Virus record (IMG/VR): IMGVR_UViG_3300022666_000353
Coordinates: 1-64,000 of that record
Reading direction: 5' to 3' (one strand)
Source: a virus
DNA length: 64,000 bases
Position 1 is the first letter of the stretch; each line of letters starts with the position of its first letter. The position numbers and the translations under genes are program-made. Below the pieces are notes generated by a model. It ran no database searches. It had not been told where the DNA came from and saw nothing but the letters and a program-made list of their open reading frames with translations. Positions 7,816 to 47,028 of the stretch are shown one piece after another.

Positions 7816-8304
7816 CTAGGCGAAAATATCCTCACGGTCTAAAACGGCGCTGACTGTACGGCGCTCTTTATCCTTCAATTTTTCCTTATCCTGGCGGTTT
7901 GCAAGAGCCAGGGCCAGGGCTGTAAGGAAGTCCGTACTCAGGTGTCGTAGAGATTGGCGCTTCTTCCAATTAAAACGCGTGTCTGTGAACAGCACATCAA
8001 AGGCTTCGAACACCAGGTCAATGTCGTTATCCGCAGTAGACAGCAAACGTTCGGCGGTTTTAAGTTCGATGGGGTATGTGTAGTGTTTTGGTGGTACTGT
8101 AAACACTACGCGAGTCTGACGACCCGCTGATAACTGGTCAGACACCAGGCGCTCAAACCGGTGAAGTATGGCAACGGTAGGGCTGCCGATAGACGCCCGG
8201 TACCACTCCCCCTTGTACAACTGTACCTCAACCCCACATTCTGGGCAGGCACCACCTTTTCGTTTGGTCTGTTGTGTGTGACAGTTAGGACAAGTCGGCA
8301 TCAT
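7816..8304 (-). CDS. Zn-ribbon protein, possibly replication associated
   Basis: CPNC...CPEC N-terminus; SD GGAGG; next to polA. Confidence 0.7.
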   Translation of the reverse strand: MMPTCPNCHTQQTKRKGGACPECGVEVQLYKGEWYRASIGSPTVAILHRFERLVSDQLSAGRQTRVVFTVPPKHYTYPIELKTAERLLSTADNDIDLVFEAFDVLFTDTRFNWKKRQSLRHLSTDFLTALALALANRQDKEKLKDKERRTVSAVLDREDIFA

Positions 8305-8355
8305 ACCTCCGTTAAATAATCCCGGCCTGGATTATGTCCGGGCCGGATGTGTTTG

Positions 8356-8685
8356 TTAGACCAGACCTCGCGCCTTTAGACTGTCCCAGGTGGGGTCTCC
8401 TGAAAACTCCTCCCAGGTAATTTTTCCAAGTATCGCGGCGTCCAACGAAACCATGTGCTCAATGTACCTGTACAGTGCAAGACGCAGCAGGTCTGACGAC
8501 ACACGCCCCCTGGGTGGAACAGGCAGGCCGTGTACTGCTTGCGCCGCCTCTAATACCTCGGTTACTACTGGAGATGTCATCGCACGAATTGACACGGATA
8601 ACTTCTCCATAGGGTCTTTCGGAGGTCTACCACCGACGTTAATTTCGGGTGACGCTTCAAATGTTTTTTGGTTTTTCCTAGCCAT
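8356..8685 (-). CDS. Putative ribbon-helix-helix DNA-binding protein
   Basis: GGRPP...VSIR...SSDLLRLALYRYI pattern. Confidence 0.55.
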   Translation of the reverse strand: MARKNQKTFEASPEINVGGRPPKDPMEKLSVSIRAMTSPVVTEVLEAAQAVHGLPVPPRGRVSSDLLRLALYRYIEHMVSLDAAILGKITWEEFSGDPTWDSLKARGLV

Positions 8686-9597: not shown

Positions 9598-10192
9598 CAG
9601 GGTACTCCTCCTTCCCTTCGTCGTCTGTATATGCCACATGCACCATCTCGACGTACCCCTGCTCAACCAACGGACGCAGATGTTCGAGCTCCTCTGGAAG
9701 GTCGTCCTCGTCGTTTTTCAACACGACCTGAACCCCAGAAAAGGGTGCGTATCCGATAACCCCCATACAAAACTCCAGTCCAAAGTTGGACAGCAGGTCA
9801 CGGTAGAACTCGGGGTTTGTTTTTGACGCCGTGGACAACGCGTAAGTAACCGTCAACATCTCCACCGGAACAAAGTCTTCTGAGTGAAGTTTTTCATTCT
9901 CCCAGAACGGGCGCGGGAGTTCCACGATGTTCTGGTAGTCCGTCTCAGAGATGTACCCGGCGTCATACAGGACGTAAGCCAGCTCCATCATGTCTTTGTC
10001 AGAGACCGTGGTACGGACGATAGCTTTGGGGTGCGCTACTAATATCTTTGATTCACCTTTTACCAGGCCGCTCGGAATGTTGGTAAGTGGTAAACGTTTC
10101 GACACACCAATAGCTCGATACTCGTCCATTACGTCGGACAAGCTGTAGTTTGATTCTCCAACACAAACCAGGATGGACACAGGGTCATTCAT
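9578..10192 (-). CDS. Hypothetical phage protein
   Basis: SD GGAGG before MNDPVS; acidic C-terminus. Confidence 0.8.
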   Translation of the reverse strand: MNDPVSILVCVGESNYSLSDVMDEYRAIGVSKRLPLTNIPSGLVKGESKILVAHPKAIVRTTVSDKDMMELAYVLYDAGYISETDYQNIVELPRPFWENEKLHSEDFVPVEMLTVTYALSTASKTNPEFYRDLLSNFGLEFCMGVIGYAPFSGVQVVLKNDEDDLPEELEHLRPLVEQGYVEMVHVAYTDDEGKEEYPDVEEDI

Positions 10193-10421
10193 GGTATTCC
10201 TCCATAAACGGGTTGTCGCGTTCCAACGCTTCGTTAGCGGTGGCAACCATGAACTGGAGCAGAACATACTGCTGCTGTGTTGCCGGTCGATTAGCAAGCT
10301 GTTCCTCGGGTGTGTCATCCCTGGTGGAATATTCATGTGGTGCAATTGTAGCCACCGTCTCGTTACCGTACGCAATGACGAATGGCCAGGGCCAGAAACC
10401 AGCGCGGCGTAAAGTAAACAT
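10185..10421 (-). CDS. Hypothetical protein
   Basis: SD GGAGG; directly downstream of a promoter. Confidence 0.7.
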   Translation of the reverse strand: MFTLRRAGFWPWPFVIAYGNETVATIAPHEYSTRDDTPEEQLANRPATQQQYVLLQFMVATANEALERDNPFMEEYHE

Positions 10422-42273: not shown

Positions 42274-42301
42274 TATGTCCTCCTTAAATCAAAACGACCC
42301 G

Positions 42302-42544
42302 TTATTCTTTCGGGGCGTTAAAGATGGAAACAGGCATTGAGGCCGCACTTACTGACGGTATTTCTACCCAACAATACAACGTGCCATGGTAATACCACAG
42401 CCTGCCAGGTTGCACGCGGGCCAGGTCTTGTAAGCATTCCTCAGAAATCACATCGCCGCTTCCGTCTACGTCACCAACTTTTGCAATAATCCCCCGAACA
42501 AATACTTTTGGGTCGTTATCGCTGCTAAGAATAACATTGTTCAA
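42302..42544 (-). CDS. Hypothetical protein
   Basis: VDGSGDVIS resembles the start of prohead-protease-like domains (weak). Confidence 0.55.
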   Translation of the reverse strand: MNNVILSSDNDPKVFVRGIIAKVGDVDGSGDVISEECLQDLARVQPGRLWYYHGTLYCWVEIPSVSAASMPVSIFNAPKE

Positions 42545-42572
42545 AACGCACCATCCTTTAAATTAAAAAAGA

Positions 42573-42644
42573 AGCCCCCACCCAGACGTGCGCTGGGTTC
42601 TCCTGATTACAGGTCAGGTGCGTCACTATATACGCTTTAGGGGC
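42573..42644 (-). tRNA. tRNA-Thr(TGT), atypical T-loop and C33
   Basis: CCTGA-CC TGT AA-TCAGG; T arm CCCAG-CGCACGT-CTGGG; acceptor GCCCCTA/TGGGGGC. Confidence 0.75.
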
Positions 42645-42650
42645 AGTCAA

Positions 42651-42722
42651 AGCCGAAGGAGAGATTTGAACTCTCAACCTACCCGATACGAACGGGCTGC
42701 TCTACCGTTGGGCTACTTCGGC
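42651..42722 (-). tRNA. tRNA-Thr(CGT)
   Basis: GCCGAAG/CTTCGGC acceptor; GCCCG-TT CGT AT-CGGGT; GAGAG-TTCAAAT-CTCTC. Confidence 0.9.
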
Positions 42723-43015
42723 GTACGGGTACGGGCATTGCGACAGAGGCTCGTTAGGTAGTGGCCCTAGATTTGTTATGCGCTTCCTGCTGCGGCAAGG
42801 GGAACCACTCGCGCTTCCACCCACTCCGGCTTGTATCCCGGTTTGTACGTCCTTGACCCGTTAGTTTTAAAAATAGGACACAGCGACCTGTGTCCTTCTG
42901 CACCAGGTTTACTACCACCTCACGGATACTGTTTAGCTATTCGACTATCCGCGGTTCATCGAACGTGCTTTAGCAAGGTCTTCTTTGTACTTGAGAAGAC
43001 GAGCCTGGTACATAG

Positions 43016-43083
43016 TAGCGGGGGAGAGGGTCGAACTCTCTTAAGGAAGGTTATGGGCCTGCCGGGTTCCGAACCACCCCGCT
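43016..43083 (-). tRNA. Compact tRNA(CAT) with tRNA-Pyl-like geometry
   Basis: AGCGGGG-T-GGTT(CGG)AACC-C-GGCAGG-CC CAT AA-CCTTCC-TTAA-GAGAG TTCGACC CTCTC-CCCCGCT-A. Confidence 0.75.
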
Positions 43084-43088
43084 TCAAA

Positions 43089-43292
43089 TCAACTAACTTT
43101 TACGTACCTAATTTCTTTTGCTTGTCGTTCTTCCGTCTGTCCTACGTAGTACGCAGCCACAATCAAAGCATCCACATTGGACATGTCCACGGCCTTACCA
43201 TACAACTGACCTGCGGCAATCTTTTCCTTAATGGTCCGTGCCATGAACTCAATCGAAAGTTTCTCTACATCCTGATACGGGCCCATAATCAT
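43089..43292 (-). CDS. Small hypothetical protein inside the RNA cluster
   Basis: SD AGGAG. Confidence 0.6.
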   Translation of the reverse strand: MIMGPYQDVEKLSIEFMARTIKEKIAAGQLYGKAVDMSNVDALIVAAYYVGQTEERQAKEIRYVKVS

Positions 43293-43316
43293 TCTCCTGG
43301 TTTTGCTGGCCTAGAG

Positions 43317-43451
43317 TGGTCATCCAGCGCGGGGTCAGTGCTCGAACCCTTTGTACGGTGCTTCTTCCGTCAGTAGGATTGAACAGCGGGCCTGTTCTCC
43401 CCAGCAAGTCCAGTTGCAACGACTGTCGGCTATCACTGTGTGCCGAATGAC
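43317..43451 (-). ncRNA. Candidate structured RNA ending in CCA
   Basis: 5' GTCATTCGGC pairs with 3' GCTGGATGAC, followed by CA. Confidence 0.45.
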
Positions 43452-43455
43452 TAGG

Positions 43456-43527
43456 CGGGCTGGGAGCGTCTCGAACGCTCACTTCCCGTTTAAACGGCGG
43501 GTGTTCTGCCTAATGAACTTCCAACCC
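43456..43527 (-). tRNA. tRNA-Lys(TTT), variant anticodon arm (G33, C-A 31:39 mismatch)
   Basis: GGGTTGG/CCAGCCC; CCCGC-CG TTT AA-ACGGG; GAGCG-TTCGAGA-CGCTC. Confidence 0.75.
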
Positions 43528-43561
43528 GTGTGGACACAGTCGCCGCTGTGTCCGTTTCGTG

Positions 43562-43921
43562 CTAGTTAATTTCGTGGTACTCCAGCACCGCCACATCGGG
43601 GAACCGGACGTAGCCTTCGTCCGCGTCAAAGTAATACAGTTCTGCCGCGTTCAGCGGGGCAGGCCAACGCTCTTTCCACATCACCACCATTGCGCCCGCC
43701 TCTTCTTCCGTCACCGTGCCGGTGGACGCCAGGTAATTCGCCAGGTTGCGAACCGCACTCAACGCGGCCTCATACTTTTTCTGCGCCCGTTCGAACGTGC
43801 CGATTGCGGTGTTCTGCCACTCCTGCCAGGGGCCGTCATCGGACAGCACCCGCACACCATCTTCAACCACACGGGCCGTGATTTTCTCCGAACACCAATC
43901 TTTCACTACTTCGATATACAC
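43562..43921 (-). CDS. Hypothetical protein inside the RNA cluster
   Basis: SD AGGAGG before GTG. Confidence 0.75.
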   Translation of the reverse strand: MYIEVVKDWCSEKITARVVEDGVRVLSDDGPWQEWQNTAIGTFERAQKKYEAALSAVRNLANYLASTGTVTEEEAGAMVVMWKERWPAPLNAAELYYFDADEGYVRFPDVAVLEYHEIN

Positions 43922-43957
43922 GTGTAATCCTCCTAAACTAGTAGAATAAAGGACCAG

Positions 43958-44051
43958 AGCGGGAGAGTGGACTTGAACCACTACCTCCTCCACTGCCTGT
44001 TTAAGCTACCAGTCACAGTGGCGTGCTGTACCGCACTATACACCACCCCGC
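43958..44051 (-). tRNA. tRNA-like RNA with ~20-nt insertion in the anticodon arm (possibly His GTG)
   Basis: T arm AGTGG-TTCAAGT-CCACT, acceptor GCGGGG/TCCCGC, CCACTG...CAGTGG enclosing TGACTGGTAGCTTAAACAGG. Confidence 0.6.
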
Positions 44052-44099
44052 ATAATAGGGACACGGGCAATCCTTAGTCATGCCGCTGTGTCCCATACC

Positions 44100-44190
44100 G
44101 CCCATCCGTCTTTCCCCGTCCTTCCCCGGTCTGGTTTCCCCTAATCCCTGTTTCCAGGGGAATGGTAGAACTCTCAGTCACGTGATGGGC
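44100..44190 (-). ncRNA. Candidate small structured RNA
   Basis: GCCCATC/GATGGGC closing stem, CCCTG-GAAA-CAGGG GNRA hairpin. Confidence 0.45.
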
Positions 44191-44196
44191 AGTGAG

Positions 44197-44282
44197 TGGT
44201 GACGGCTGGATTTGAACCAGCATTACCCATGTGGGAACCTGTTTTACAGACAAGCGCGACTAACCGTATTCGCATCGTCACC
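44197..44282 (-). tRNA. tRNA-Tyr(GTA)
   Basis: GGTGACG/CGTCACC-A; CTTGT-CT GTA AA-ACAGG; long variable arm; GCTGG-TTCAAAT-CCAGC. Confidence 0.9.
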
Positions 44283-44400
44283 GTAAATAAACTAAATTTT
44301 TGTGGTACACCAAAAGACCAATCTCCGGGGGACTAAGGCGGTCAGACCCTAGTCCCCCTTTACCTGGAGGTTGAAAATGAAGGGGCGGTCAGACCCCTAG

Positions 44401-44474
44401 AGAGCGGGGCAGGGGTTGAACCTGCTACCTCCTGGTTGTCTTACCCAGGGCTCCTACCGCGGAGCTTCCCACTC
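44401..44474 (-). tRNA. tRNA-like RNA, ambiguous anticodon (9-nt loop GTAAGACAA)
   Basis: GAGTGGG/CCCGCTC; D arm GCTC/GAGC; CCTGG/CCAGG; GCAGG-TTCAACC-CCTGC. Confidence 0.65.
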
Positions 44475-44586
44475 TGGTCGAGCGTCCCAGCGTCGTCTGG
44501 GTTAGCCGGTCACGTTGGTGGCCTCCCGCTGAACCCGGCGCGGTACACCTGCCATACCGCTGGCGTCCGTTCACCACATCACTCGA
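44475..44586 (-). ncRNA. tRNA-mimic RNA (acceptor, T-like arm and CCA; long hairpin replaces D and anticodon arms)
   Basis: TCGAGTG/CGCTCGA-CCA; CCCAG-ACGACG-CTGGG; nested GTGGT/GCCAC, GAAC/GTTC, GCGGTA/TACCGC. Confidence 0.5.
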
Positions 44587-44952
44587 AGTAAATGTCCCAG
44601 TCCACAAAGCCCCGTCAGGGTCGGGTATCTAACCTGGATACCACCACTCTATATTTCAAGAGTTTCGATGGGTGGGCGGGCTTATCACTGGTTTGTCCCT
44701 GTCGCTGCCGGTCTGCTTGCCGACTGTCATCACCACTCCGCGCTAAATCCAGGTGACGGAAAGGAGAGATGGTTACTCCTCTGGCGGGCTGTCTTTTCCA
44801 GCGGTCATTGTCCGACTGAATTGTGTCCGGCTACCGAGTTTTTTGATGTGTTGGTAAATGGATTGGGTATGCGCCAAAGAGCCTATCCTCTGTAATAGCT
44901 CCTGATAAGTCACCAACACGTCTCTGACCCGTTCCAGTCAGTCGCAACCAAA

Positions 44953-45024
44953 AGGCACTTGAGTGATTCGAACACTCGTCTGCGCCGTACAACCGGCGCG
45001 TTTTCCCAATTAAACTAAAGTGCC
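44953..45024 (-). tRNA. tRNA-like RNA with 6- or 8-nt anticodon loop
   Basis: GGCACTT/AAGTGCC; GCGCCG-GTTGTA-CGGCGC; GAGTG-TTCGAAT-CACTC. Confidence 0.75.
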
Positions 45025-45114
45025 GTCGTCCCTACGTTCCCGTCATTACGGGTCTATGGGTTGCCTCAGTCCCAACTCTGGAGGTGAACATGACTGGCCA
45101 CACCTGGCCAAGGC

Positions 45115-45187
45115 GGTGCCGGGGGGGAGTTGAACCCACAACCTCCTGTTTTGGAGACAGGTGCTCTGCCAATTGAGCCTCCGGCCC
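45115..45187 (-). tRNA. tRNA-Trp(CCA)
   Basis: GCTC-AATTGGCA-GAGC D arm; CCTGT-CT CCA AA-ACAGG; GTTCAACTC T loop. Confidence 0.85.
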
Positions 45188-45190
45188 GTA

Positions 45191-45400
45191 AGATTGGGAC
45201 ACGGTGAGGTGCCTGAGAATAGCGCCGCGCCAGTTATTCTTCGTTCGTTTATCGGCCATCTCCTGGACCCTCCTGGTACTGGATGCGCCCCCGCAGTGCC
45301 ACGTACTACCAGGATTAGAGCATTCCGACTACCCACGACACCGAGGCCACTCACCTAACTTACAGGTCGGTGCGGCTGACACAACCCGTGTCCCAAATCT
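45191..45400 (-). ncRNA. Unknown ~210-nt structured RNA
   Basis: 11-bp closing helix TTGGGACACGG/CCGTGTCCCAA; internal CCTGGTA/TACCAGG hairpin. Confidence 0.55.
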
Positions 45401-45477
45401 TTAAATTAAGTTTTCTTCCCAACGCACCTCCCACGGGTTCTATGGGTTGCCTCTGTCCCTTCTTGTCCAACTCGCAG

Positions 45478-45740
45478 TGGACCCGGTGGCATCGAAGCCA
45501 CGTCACTCAGCGCCTTTAGTTCTCCTGATGTAGAGTCATTCCCGTTATATCCTGCGGGTCAGGTCTTACCACCCCCACCACCTGGTTACTTACGCGAAGG
45601 CCAGGACTTCGTCAGACACAGGTGCTACGATAACTTTGCACCCAAACAACTGTTCAGCTAAAGAGACTTCGTCTTTATTGGCTTTTGTTTTTTGTGACTC
45701 TCGGATTAGTTTGACACCAAGCTCGAAACCTTGCGGGCCC
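45478..45740 (-). ncRNA. ssrA: tmRNA, compact, tag (A)ANKDEVSLAEQLFGCKVIVAPVSDEVLAFA*
   Basis: 5' GGGCCCG-CAAGGTTTCGA; 3' GAC-GTGGC-TTCGAT-GCCAC-CGGGTCC-A with G3-U70 and A73; tag frame 45682-45590. Confidence 0.88.
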
Positions 45741-45791
45741 TTAGTTGCCGGTCTCTGCCGGCTGTCACGGTGTCTGGTTGGCACATTTCCT

Positions 45792-46235
45792 TGACGCGTT
45801 GTGGCATACGATTAACGCCTTCACTCGACCGCCTCATGCTCTGTGTGTCACCGTTTACACGTTTAGGTTTAACAGTTCCGGCTATGACGGCGTCGCTCTC
45901 GCGCAAAGGCTCTGAGGGCGTTACACGGGCGTCCAGGAATACTCTCGGACAGTCTCACCCTATCCTGTCAAACCCGCAGTTCCTCTCGTTGTGCGGGCAA
46001 ACCCGTGCACTAGCACTGTTGTAAAGTCTCGAACCACACAGTTCTTTGGAACTCCACCTGTTACCAGGTATAGAAGAAGACCGCGTAGTCGTCTAACAGC
46101 AGCGATTGTTTCCCTGTGGTTCTTACCAACTCCTCGCGTGTCCCGCTGTGTTAGGCTTGATTTCAGGTTGCGCCTCCCTACTCTCTTCCACTCGCCACTC
46201 TTTAAAGGATGACGTGCTAAGTCAACCTCCCGTCA
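45792..46235 (-). ncRNA. ~444-nt structured RNA built on a 23S rRNA H43/H44 (uL11-binding)-like core
   Basis: 5' TGACGGGAGGTTGACTTAGCACGTCATCCTTTAAAGAGTGGC pairs with 3' GCCACAACGCGTCA. Confidence 0.7.
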
Positions 46236-46349
46236 GTCTCAGCCGGATGTGACCACCTGGTGTGTTATTACTACAAACACCACCAGGCTCATCCAAATAA
46301 TATACGGTTGTTAATGTGCTATTAAAAACATTTTATATTTCTATGTATA

Positions 46350-46378
46350 ATTATAGCGCGTTAACCACCAGAAGTCAA
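46350..46378 (-). promoter_or_regulatory. sigma70-type promoter at the head of the ncRNA/tRNA operon
   Basis: TTGACT-17-TATAAT. Confidence 0.85.
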
Positions 46379-46383
46379 GCAGT

Positions 46384-46614
46384 TTATTCACTTTCTTTTG
46401 CAATTCTTATAAACTCTTGCTGCGCTACCCTCAACCACAGTCGTTCAAACGCGGCGTTGCCGCTGTGTCCATCCGCCAAAATACCCCAGTCTTTACGAAC
46501 TGCATCCAGGTCACGGATGTTTTTAATCATCCTACGGTACTGAAGCAGGTTCGCAGTTTCCAAACCAATAAGAATTACCAATAATAAACAAACCATAACC
46601 GTAATCATAGCCAT
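46384..46614 (-). CDS. Small membrane-anchored protein
   Basis: N-terminal TM. Confidence 0.65.
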   Translation of the reverse strand: MAMITVMVCLLLVILIGLETANLLQYRRMIKNIRDLDAVRKDWGILADGHSGNAAFERLWLRVAQQEFIRIAKESE

Positions 46615-46638
46615 TTCCTATATGTTATAATTCGGCCT

Positions 46639-47028
46639 ATGAGCGACACACCTCTTATCCATTTCCGTCACCGCGTGGGCGACGGAGTTCACTATATTAC
46701 CGAACACCCCCGCACCTTCAAAAAAGACGGAGAAACCCAGAGGGGAGACACATCCGAGCTTTGTATATTGCTAAACCTTGAAATCGTGTTGTCCTGTTTC
46801 GGACTACCAGGGCTGGACGAGCTGTGGAACTCCGTATACCCAAACGATTTCATGTCTGTGGAAGATGTGTCATATATCATGTCCACTGCCATCGCGTTCT
46901 CGGACGAGTTCAATCCTAGAATACCGGATAATGTGGCTGACGTTCTGCGCGACGTGCAAGCTATGCACTGCGACGAACTGGCAGACGCGGCAGAAGAGTT
47001 ATTAAAATCACAGGGGGCTGTTGTTTAA
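46639..47028 (+). CDS. Hypothetical protein, probably from a leaderless mRNA
   Basis: TGtTATAAT ends 7 nt before ATG; no SD; opposite strand. Confidence 0.7.
   Translation: MSDTPLIHFRHRVGDGVHYITEHPRTFKKDGETQRGDTSELCILLNLEIVLSCFGLPGLDELWNSVYPNDFMSVEDVSYIMSTAIAFSDEFNPRIPDNVADVLRDVQAMHCDELADAAEELLKSQGAVV

Follow-up and report, generated by a model that had tools for sequence, protein, structure and literature searches.

What is encoded on the minus strand at the head of the tRNA array in a 64,000-nucleotide (nt) stretch of viral DNA (positions 1 to 64,000 of IMG/VR record IMGVR_UViG_3300022666_000353; hereafter, the window), where an initial annotation had noted a segment imitating the GTPase-associated center of 23S rRNA? 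The record is 94 kb long and encompasses a typical phage gene set, including those for DNA polymerase, ribonucleotide reductase, terminase, and portal. Our analysis indicates that positions 46246-45878 of the minus strand very probably encode a 369-nt non-coding RNA (ncRNA) that heads a promoter-driven RNA operon and is a derived member of a large family of phage RNAs. The best overall explanation, to which we assign a probability of about one half, combines this identity with mimicry of the ribosome by an RNA that would act off the ribosome.

Re-reading of the letters from position 46235 yielded the same minus-strand sequence as quoted in the initial annotation, and the similarity described there is real: a segment of 40 nt (46235-46195, minus strand, as are all coordinates of the RNA below) matches 23S rRNA at about 1050-1090, including UUAG and the equivalent of A1067. 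The GTPase-associated center consists of the tip of helix 42 (H42), H43, and H44 (E. coli 1051-1108), and this domain is the minimal one that binds ribosomal protein uL11 and thiostrepton. The window RNA contains the same elements in the same order: its H43 stem and 1082-1090 junction strand are nearly identical to those of the rRNA, the 1058:1080 pair shows the covariation known from rRNA, the equivalents of G1087 and C1102 still pair, and the H44 hairpin is of equal length. The compensatory change proposed for the H43 stem also holds, G1063-C1075 being replaced by A-U; in the corresponding column pair of the family alignment A2, GC is present in 37 sequences and AU in one, the window. Unlike the center in 23S rRNA, the window RNA is free-standing, is closed by a non-rRNA helix of its own, and carries an extra helix and a domain of about 290 nt between H43 and H44, which together make a four-way junction.

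The likeness exceeds chance, and the initial reading as a stand-alone phage ncRNA that imitates the center is supported. A covariance model, R1, built from 17 phage loci with the window left out, matches the window at 46240-46138 (E = 1.5e-7); because R1 aligns only the 5' half of the window and forces a false short closure, an nhmmer profile from 10 relatives, likewise excluding the window, was used for the full unit and matches 46234-46107 (E = 2e-13), with a second, collinear match at 45989-45904 (E = 0.05). Searching with a degenerate H43 pattern retrieved 47 viral loci, of which 2 (L021 and L040) continue as real 23S rRNA; the other 45, all located among phage tRNA genes, diverge from 23S at once on both sides. 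The short stretches identical to rRNA might suggest a captured fragment of 23S rRNA or a chance resemblance, but the flanks are not rRNA, true 23S continuation accounts for those 2 of the 47 matches alone, the closing helices differ in sequence and covary, and the E-values range from 1e-7 to 1e-13, so that we consider this explanation exceedingly improbable. A genuine 23S gene or gene fragment was rejected as well: there is no continuity with 23S on either side of 1051-1108, L021 and L040 run on differently, and no large-subunit (LSU) rRNA match was obtained.

The family to which the window RNA belongs is defined by alignments A1 and A2 and by R1. A scan with the 3' motif of the family detected at least 120 IMG/VR viral loci; R1 matched 65 of the 66 new loci found in this way at the motif itself and L102 about 300 nt away. 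The same motif is present in 114 stretches of bacterial genomes from many phyla, in a set with one genome per species, and these stretches presumably represent prophages, mobile tRNA arrays, or binned phage contigs. The bacterial stretches, metagenome-assembled genomes among them, come from Bacteroidota, Bacillota, Actinomycetota (including Mycobacterium), Proteobacteria, Campylobacterota, and the candidate phyla radiation. Full-length copies, scoring 91-98 bits with R1, were identified in Aeromonas phage 4_4572, Pseudomonas phage pf16, and Xanthomonas phage XacN1; in GenBank, these copies in cultured phages are unannotated. The XacN1 member (L051, 2493-2733) lies directly 3' of an annotated 2'-5' RNA ligase gene, at a distance from the annotated tRNAs, a position that hints at a tie to RNA repair. 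Family units follow the preceding tRNA at a distance of 12-18 nt, and of 15-18 nt with a single exception. The pattern searches favor canonical halves, so these counts are no measure of how frequent variants are.

We could not find an earlier description of this family in Rfam 15 or in searchable papers, which agrees with the original impression that no such family was described. The cmscan check proposed at that stage, run with Rfam 15 over 45300-46700, gave nothing at the gathering threshold and nothing with an E-value below about 5, LSU rRNA included, and family members in 20 loci had no Rfam match. Nor did the openly searchable literature yield an account of any phage RNA copying the GTPase-associated center or the sarcin-ricin loop; two large surveys of candidate structured RNAs from viruses and microbiomes make no mention of 23S, L11, or GTPase, and in one of them no rRNA predictions overlapped the candidates.

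Where does the RNA end, and how is it closed? The initial annotation had extended it over 46235-45792, with closure some 390 nt downstream by the segment GCCAC-AA-CGCGUCA and with an insert of about that length in place of the H44 loop. Homology and folding instead delineate the 369-nt unit at 46246-45878, with both ends inferred from the fold. Across the 45 loci, no consistent signal emerged from a rigid search in which an H44 strand had to be followed at once by a closing strand, no more than 1.5 kb from the 5' half, and that closure model was therefore dropped. The true 3' half was revealed by short members of the family located between tRNAs, and its counterpart in the window, 45918-45878, was found by pairwise alignment with the nearest relative, L015. 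The segment GCCAC-AA-CGCGUCA does exist, at 45805-45792, but it is not the partner. In favor of the earlier fold, its strands are complementary, and the constrained fold is about 2-4 kcal/mol worse than the alternatives. Against it, the free minimum free energy (MFE) fold of 46250-45785 picks the family closure (-147.2 kcal/mol, compared with -143.2 kcal/mol when the earlier pairs are forced), the profile alignment stops at 45904, every homolog has the H44 hairpin directly before the closing strand, and the window has the same series of UUUG, hairpin, AC, and closing strand at 45907-45885. Homologs keep both H43 and H44, and the insert enters at the junction between them. Covariation among homologs, suggested as a further check, is present in the family helices. 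We thus regard replacement of H44 by a large insert as very improbable.

Read from 5' to 3', a family unit opens with one strand of the closing helix and the H43 hairpin; next come the junction strand UUUAAAGAGU and a short helix that leads into the insert, and after the insert the return strand, an invariant UUUG, the H44 hairpin with an rRNA-type hexaloop, ACAC, and the 3' closing strand. Inserts range from 47 to 340 nt, both hairpins being retained throughout, and the smallest members, L011 (118 nt) and L008 (116 nt), are nearly pure copies of the GTPase-associated center. Among 17 sequences, 95.1% of the structure is paired, with compensatory changes in 12 of the 22 pairs; in A2, which includes 38 sequences with the window among them, 95.4% of the cells are paired and 14 of the 21 pairs are compensatory. 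Across 500 shuffles of A2, paired fraction and covariation score always stayed below those of the real alignment; slid controls dropped to 27-54%. The H42-like closing helix is not conserved in sequence, and 7 of its 8 pairs show compensatory changes across the 38 members; the insert helix, which enters after GAGU and leaves before the invariant UUUG, covaries in the family as well.

Covariation extends to tertiary contacts. Positions equivalent to 1072 and 1092 are C/C in 70 and U/U in 7 of the 78 parsed sequences, and the 1082:1086 pair is U:A in 58, C:G in 17, and A:U in 2. Because these contacts covary, what the family conserves is, as read from the alignments, the three-dimensional fold and not the helices alone. 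Canonical members keep both loops of the center along with this tertiary covariation, and in these members the exposed A1067 loop and A1095/A1098 are nearly invariant. At least two classes of inserts are discernible: class 1 ends with a conserved module comprising GAAGUA ... CACCCC, a GNRA-like loop, and GGUAAGG, and in class 2, that of the window RNA, inserts run from GC-GAGUG at the start to CCYUNAGA-GC at the end. A blastn-short comparison of the inserts with two real 23S sequences detected no rRNA-like segments other than the GTPase-associated center, a search in which short words are blind to the sarcin-ricin loop.

The unconstrained MFE fold of the window unit (-126.2 kcal/mol) reproduces the family architecture, that is, a self-closed mimic of the center with an inserted domain, and, scored in A2, the window RNA has 19 of the 21 family pairs. 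On its 5' side (46246-46230), the closing helix has an outer strand, 46246-46242, that pairs with 45882-45878, and an inner strand, 46235-46230, that pairs with 45890-45885. The H43-like hairpin (46228-46206, corresponding to 23S 1057-1081) has the family stem with the covarying 1058:1080 pair and the compensated A-U pair, and is followed by the junction strand UUAAAGAGU (46205-46197), which corresponds to invariant or near-invariant columns in A1 and A2. The 5' strand of the insert helix with its conserved extension (46196-46188) pairs with 45918-45908, all 8 pairs being formed; the latter, 3' strand is supported by the pairwise alignment and the profile. It leads into the UUUG linker (45907-45904; invariant columns in A2) and the H44-like hairpin (45903-45894), which is 10 nt long, as is 23S 1091-1100. 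The unit ends with the linker A-C-G, the C of which pairs with the G1087 equivalent, and the closing-helix 3' strands (45893-45878), as assigned by the fold and A2.

The window RNA is a member of a subclass of about 370-430 nt in which the insert carries a second rRNA-like element, a hairpin resembling the sarcin-ricin loop of 23S rRNA (H95, 2653-2667). The window, L015, the metagenome contig L052, and L090 share a common insert start and a hairpin loop copying the sarcin-ricin loop; a subclass-specific pattern added 8 loci (L159-L166), 6 of which contain complete distinct units, and those 6 have the exact universal 12-nt sarcin-ricin sequence. In A3, an 11-sequence alignment of the subclass, 9 of the 10 relatives possess the sarcin-ricin core from G2655 (GUAC, a GNGA tetraloop, GGA), and 7 of the 10 have the exact 12-mer of 23S. 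In the consensus fold of A3, the insert helix is extended, and a conserved single-stranded motif, a long-range helix, and the sarcin-ricin hairpin are present, the stem of this hairpin covarying in the subclass; 92.6% of the cells are paired, 32 of the 54 pairs are compensatory, and all five measures exceed those of every one of 500 shuffles, with the counts made on a structure predicted from A3 itself. Short class 2 members (L005, L007, L017, L051, and L119) are devoid of the sarcin-ricin hairpin.

In the window, the subclass traits are readily traced: the insert start, the ACCACAGGGA motif, the long-range helix, and a sarcin-ricin-type hairpin 80-100 nt before UUUG are all present. The single-stranded subclass motif AACCACAGGGAA (46121-46110) falls inside the profile match and is conserved in the window, L161, L090, and L159-L166. 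The long-range helix (46009-45923, with 46009-46002 pairing with 45930-45923) encloses the hairpin; 8 of its 9 pairs are compensatory in the subclass, and the window forms 8, as read from the sequence, one register step off the MAFFT alignment. The hairpin itself (45997-45973), aligned with its relatives, has a 6-bp stem and a GAGA tetraloop (45987-45984) closed by a C-G pair. Among the insert helices listed initially, CCCGCA/UGCGGG is indeed present, but it had not been recognized as the stem of this hairpin. The likeness to 23S resides in the loop, where the GAGA tetraloop and the C-G closure are followed by GGA (GGAA is kept in the window), giving nine nucleotides identical to 23S 2657-2665, compared with 12 in L159-L166, L161 included. 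The stem is unrelated to H95, and the bulged-G motif is lost, with C in place of G2655 and A in place of U2656; the complete sarcin-ricin motif, an AGUA/GAA bulged-G module under a GNRA loop, is thus absent from the window, CA replacing GU.

Since the insert presents a sarcin-ricin hairpin, both rRNA elements at which translation GTPases dock are copied in a single molecule. The fold is under selection, and the identity to the two rRNA elements exceeds what the helices need, extending to the exposed loops in canonical members. One could still envisage the junction as a structural scaffold, that is, a stable frame that withstands nucleases or a module through which the tRNA operon is processed, with the insert carrying the function and no binding by mimicry. 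The high diversity of the inserts (the 47 to 340 nt and at least two classes noted above), the placement of units shortly after tRNAs, as if freed by tRNA processing, and the window copy, which alters its loops and yet keeps every helix, all fit this possibility. However, a mere scaffold has no need for a nearly invariant exposed A1067 loop and A1095/A1098 or for a second rRNA site copied to 12-nt identity, and in the smallest members there is almost nothing apart from the copy of the center; on balance, we find it quite unlikely.

The window copy differs from canonical members in exposed elements. Its H43 loop (46220-46214) has 7 nt in place of 9, with UUAG kept and an alignment gap at the equivalents of G1071 and C1072, nucleotides of the H43 loop that form base triples with the H44 stem in the rRNA. 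In H44, where the family trait is a GC/GC stem with a GUARNA hexaloop, followed by A-C and the closing strand, the length, the position, and the A-C with the strand after it are kept in the window; each of the two stem pairs is reversed (the window is the single CG and the single GC in the respective A2 pairs), the hexaloop is now C-GAGA-G, and the A1095 equivalent is gone. Together with the change of G and U to C and A in the bulged-G module, three contact loops deviate from the family consensus. Faithful mimicry of the uL11/thiostrepton site by this copy is therefore doubtful, given that the two H43-loop nucleotides for locking onto H44 are missing and another sequence stands in place of the A1095 hexaloop.

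Is the window RNA then a decaying copy, a family member no longer functional and subject to drift? The deviation of all three contact loops is what decay predicts, and the phage has no close relatives that could show conservation. None were found via the neighboring 252-aa protein or the ribonucleotide reductase, the terminase is at most 28% identical to those of GenBank phages, and neither blastn of the ncRNA region against GenBank phages nor an exact 30-mer search gave a match, so the comparative data come from distant phages. Nevertheless, the closing, insert, sarcin-ricin-stem, and long-range helices are all kept through compensatory changes, the RNA is preceded by a near-consensus promoter, and the same pair of H43 and H44 loops recurs elsewhere. 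L161, from a 358-kb phage, has the same 7-nt H43 loop and the same H44 hexaloop while being 50% identical to the window RNA overall, and it retains the perfect sarcin-ricin 12-mer. Decay thus appears improbable. Because L161 shares the H43/H44 variant at this level of divergence and the helices are kept, we read the variant as a maintained alternative form, on the thin evidence of two RNAs, and the window copy as a putative retargeted or partner-adapted version and not a faithful copy of the uL11/thiostrepton site. A search of IMG/VR with the variant pattern found no third RNA with a variant GTPase-associated center, L161 being the sole other case. Both variant-bearing arrays encode a transfer-messenger RNA (tmRNA), 137 nt downstream in the window (45477-45740) and 1.5 kb downstream in L161 (coordinates 9928-10293 and 8025-8381, both on the minus strand), two cases in all; no tmRNA was seen in the other subclass loci fetched.

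The genomic setting is that of an RNA operon. As initially proposed, the ncRNA occupies the head of the operon, upstream of the tmRNA: a sigma-70-type promoter (46378-46350, minus strand; TTGACT, a 17-nt spacer, TATAAT), with 11 of 12 consensus matches, is the top-scoring site across 42300-46700, and the order that follows on the same strand is the ncRNA unit, the tmRNA gene (45740-45477; ARAGORN), and five tRNA genes (ARAGORN). The window unit thus lies within a phage tRNA/tmRNA array, and the genome contains one copy of it. Between 46384 and about 42000, there is no open reading frame (ORF) longer than about 100 codons, and the ORFs around the ncRNA have no informative Pfam or PHROG match.

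Two short segments of the operon flank the unit. The 137-nt spacer between the unit and the tmRNA (45877-45741), which lies outside the family unit and includes the 45805-45792 strands, forms hairpins of its own (MFE -33.6 kcal/mol), with a GC-rich hairpin at its end adjoining the tmRNA 5' end, and possibly serves in RNA processing or encodes a small RNA. A leader hairpin (46287-46256), located between promoter and unit, resembles the family 3' half in its loop and 3' arm: it contains UUUG, an H44-type hexaloop, ACAC, and complementary clamping arms, without H43 or an insert. This likeness is not significant (R1 E = 1.9; nhmmer E = 4.9), and the hairpin is possibly what remains of a second, truncated unit. 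Elsewhere in the window, the plus strand at 59150-59255 matches the Rfam EGFOA RNA (RF02955) with 40.8 bits against a gathering score of 37.7, and the minus strand at 45024-44953 contains a tRNA-like gene with an undetermined two-base 'anticodon' according to ARAGORN, which scores 49.7 bits with the Rfam tRNA model.

What might such an RNA do? We propose that its two ends fold into a self-closed copy of the H42 tip, H43, and H44, and that the RNA acts off the ribosome by molecular mimicry of the factor-docking site, binding and thereby diverting or occupying a protein that normally recognizes this site on the ribosome. Candidate partners include uL11, with consequences for RelA activation, translation GTPases, and ribosome-directed toxins or defense effectors; the likeliest target would be a toxin or defense effector of this kind or else a translation GTPase. 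Capture of such a protein would protect translation during phage infection, in line with the counter-defense role of phage tRNAs, and the altered loops of the window copy would change its partner spectrum. That the RNA is an off-ribosome decoy capturing a factor or toxin that normally recognizes the docking site is, in our estimate, plausible, although somewhat short of an even chance.

Precedents exist for the components of this scheme. Both rRNA pieces seem to be recognizable off the ribosome by a translation GTPase, as we propose for the phage RNA: in the 'ribosome in pieces' work of Munishkin and Wool from 1997, EF-G reportedly bound isolated oligoribonucleotides of the thiostrepton and sarcin-ricin domains in vitro. 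Those were two separate oligonucleotides, whereas the phage RNA joins both elements naturally, its binding being putative. The toxin Tre23 ADP-ribosylates H44 at 1095-1098 (PMC8661411), and a phage tRNA neutralizes the tRNA-cleaving PARIS defense (PMC11464382).

A narrower alternative is that the RNA serves as a sponge for uL11, titrating the free protein so that new ribosomes lack uL11, RelA stays inactive, and the stringent response during infection is weakened. In favor of this, the domain that the RNA copies is the minimal one for uL11 binding, the H43 stem and junction contacted by uL11 are almost unchanged even in the window copy, and the tertiary covariation shows that the family keeps the fold that uL11 recognizes. 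However, this leaves unexplained the sarcin-ricin copy of the subclass, which is not bound by uL11 and which argues against a pure sponge; furthermore, the window RNA and L161 are without the 1071-1072 lock that stabilizes the uL11-binding fold, and most of the cellular uL11 is already bound to ribosomes. We deem this alternative unlikely. At the other extreme is a more elaborate version of the decoy reading, in which a free-standing replica of the GTPase-associated center and the sarcin-ricin loop, made by large phages, captures translation GTPases or ribosome-directed immune toxins, and a second form, re-engineered from the first, is seen in the window RNA and L161, with the H43-H44 lock and the exposed loops exchanged (in the window, also the bulged G), which would change the partner or escape a host countermeasure. 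We advance this version tentatively and hold it to be less probable than the decoy reading itself.

Several points weigh against mimicry of the docking site as the explanation for the window RNA. Its copy may no longer bind what canonical members bind, because the H44-locking nucleotides, the A1095 hexaloop, and the bulged G are lost, and the variant center is known from two RNAs only. Transcription, RNA ends, binding, and phenotype are predictions, and the structure on which the subclass counts depend was derived from the subclass alignment. Finally, we know of no defense system aimed at the GTPase-associated center or the sarcin-ricin loop in the host of this phage.

Two kinds of known RNAs invite comparison. 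The leaders of ribosomal-protein operons, such as the L10 leader and the L1-binding leader of the L11 operon, are likewise extra-ribosomal RNAs that imitate an rRNA protein-binding site; however, these are short cis-regulatory mRNA leaders with a loose imitation, whereas the phage RNA is an independent gene with near-identical copies of two rRNA sites. A leader of this type was rejected for the window, in which no ribosomal-protein gene lies near or after the ncRNA; it is followed by the tmRNA and tRNAs. GOLLD and ROOL (RF02032 and RF03087) occupy the same niche as the present family, being highly structured RNAs of several hundred nt and of unknown function in phage tRNA arrays, and in L011, GOLLD is found in the same array as a family member. 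Identity with GOLLD, ROOL, or another Rfam 15 family was discarded, as the covariance models gave no sequence or structure match, and no rRNA mimicry is reported in the paper on GOLLD and ROOL structures solved by cryo-electron microscopy (PMC12286853).

If imitation of the factor-docking site is borne out, these RNAs would constitute a new class of viral ncRNAs and a new layer in the phage-host conflict over translation, beside the phage tRNAs that replace or shield attacked tRNAs. They would also provide a compact natural model of the docking site formed by the GTPase-associated center and the sarcin-ricin loop for structural work, and a means of identifying the host proteins, toxins, or GTPases by which this site is recognized. 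The window copy and L161 form a natural mutant series on the same scaffold, with three loops changed in the window and an intermediate state, a variant center with an intact sarcin-ricin loop, in L161, so that the relation between loop and partner is directly testable. In practical terms, the family amounts to a gene that is so far unannotated in hundreds of phage and prophage genomes.

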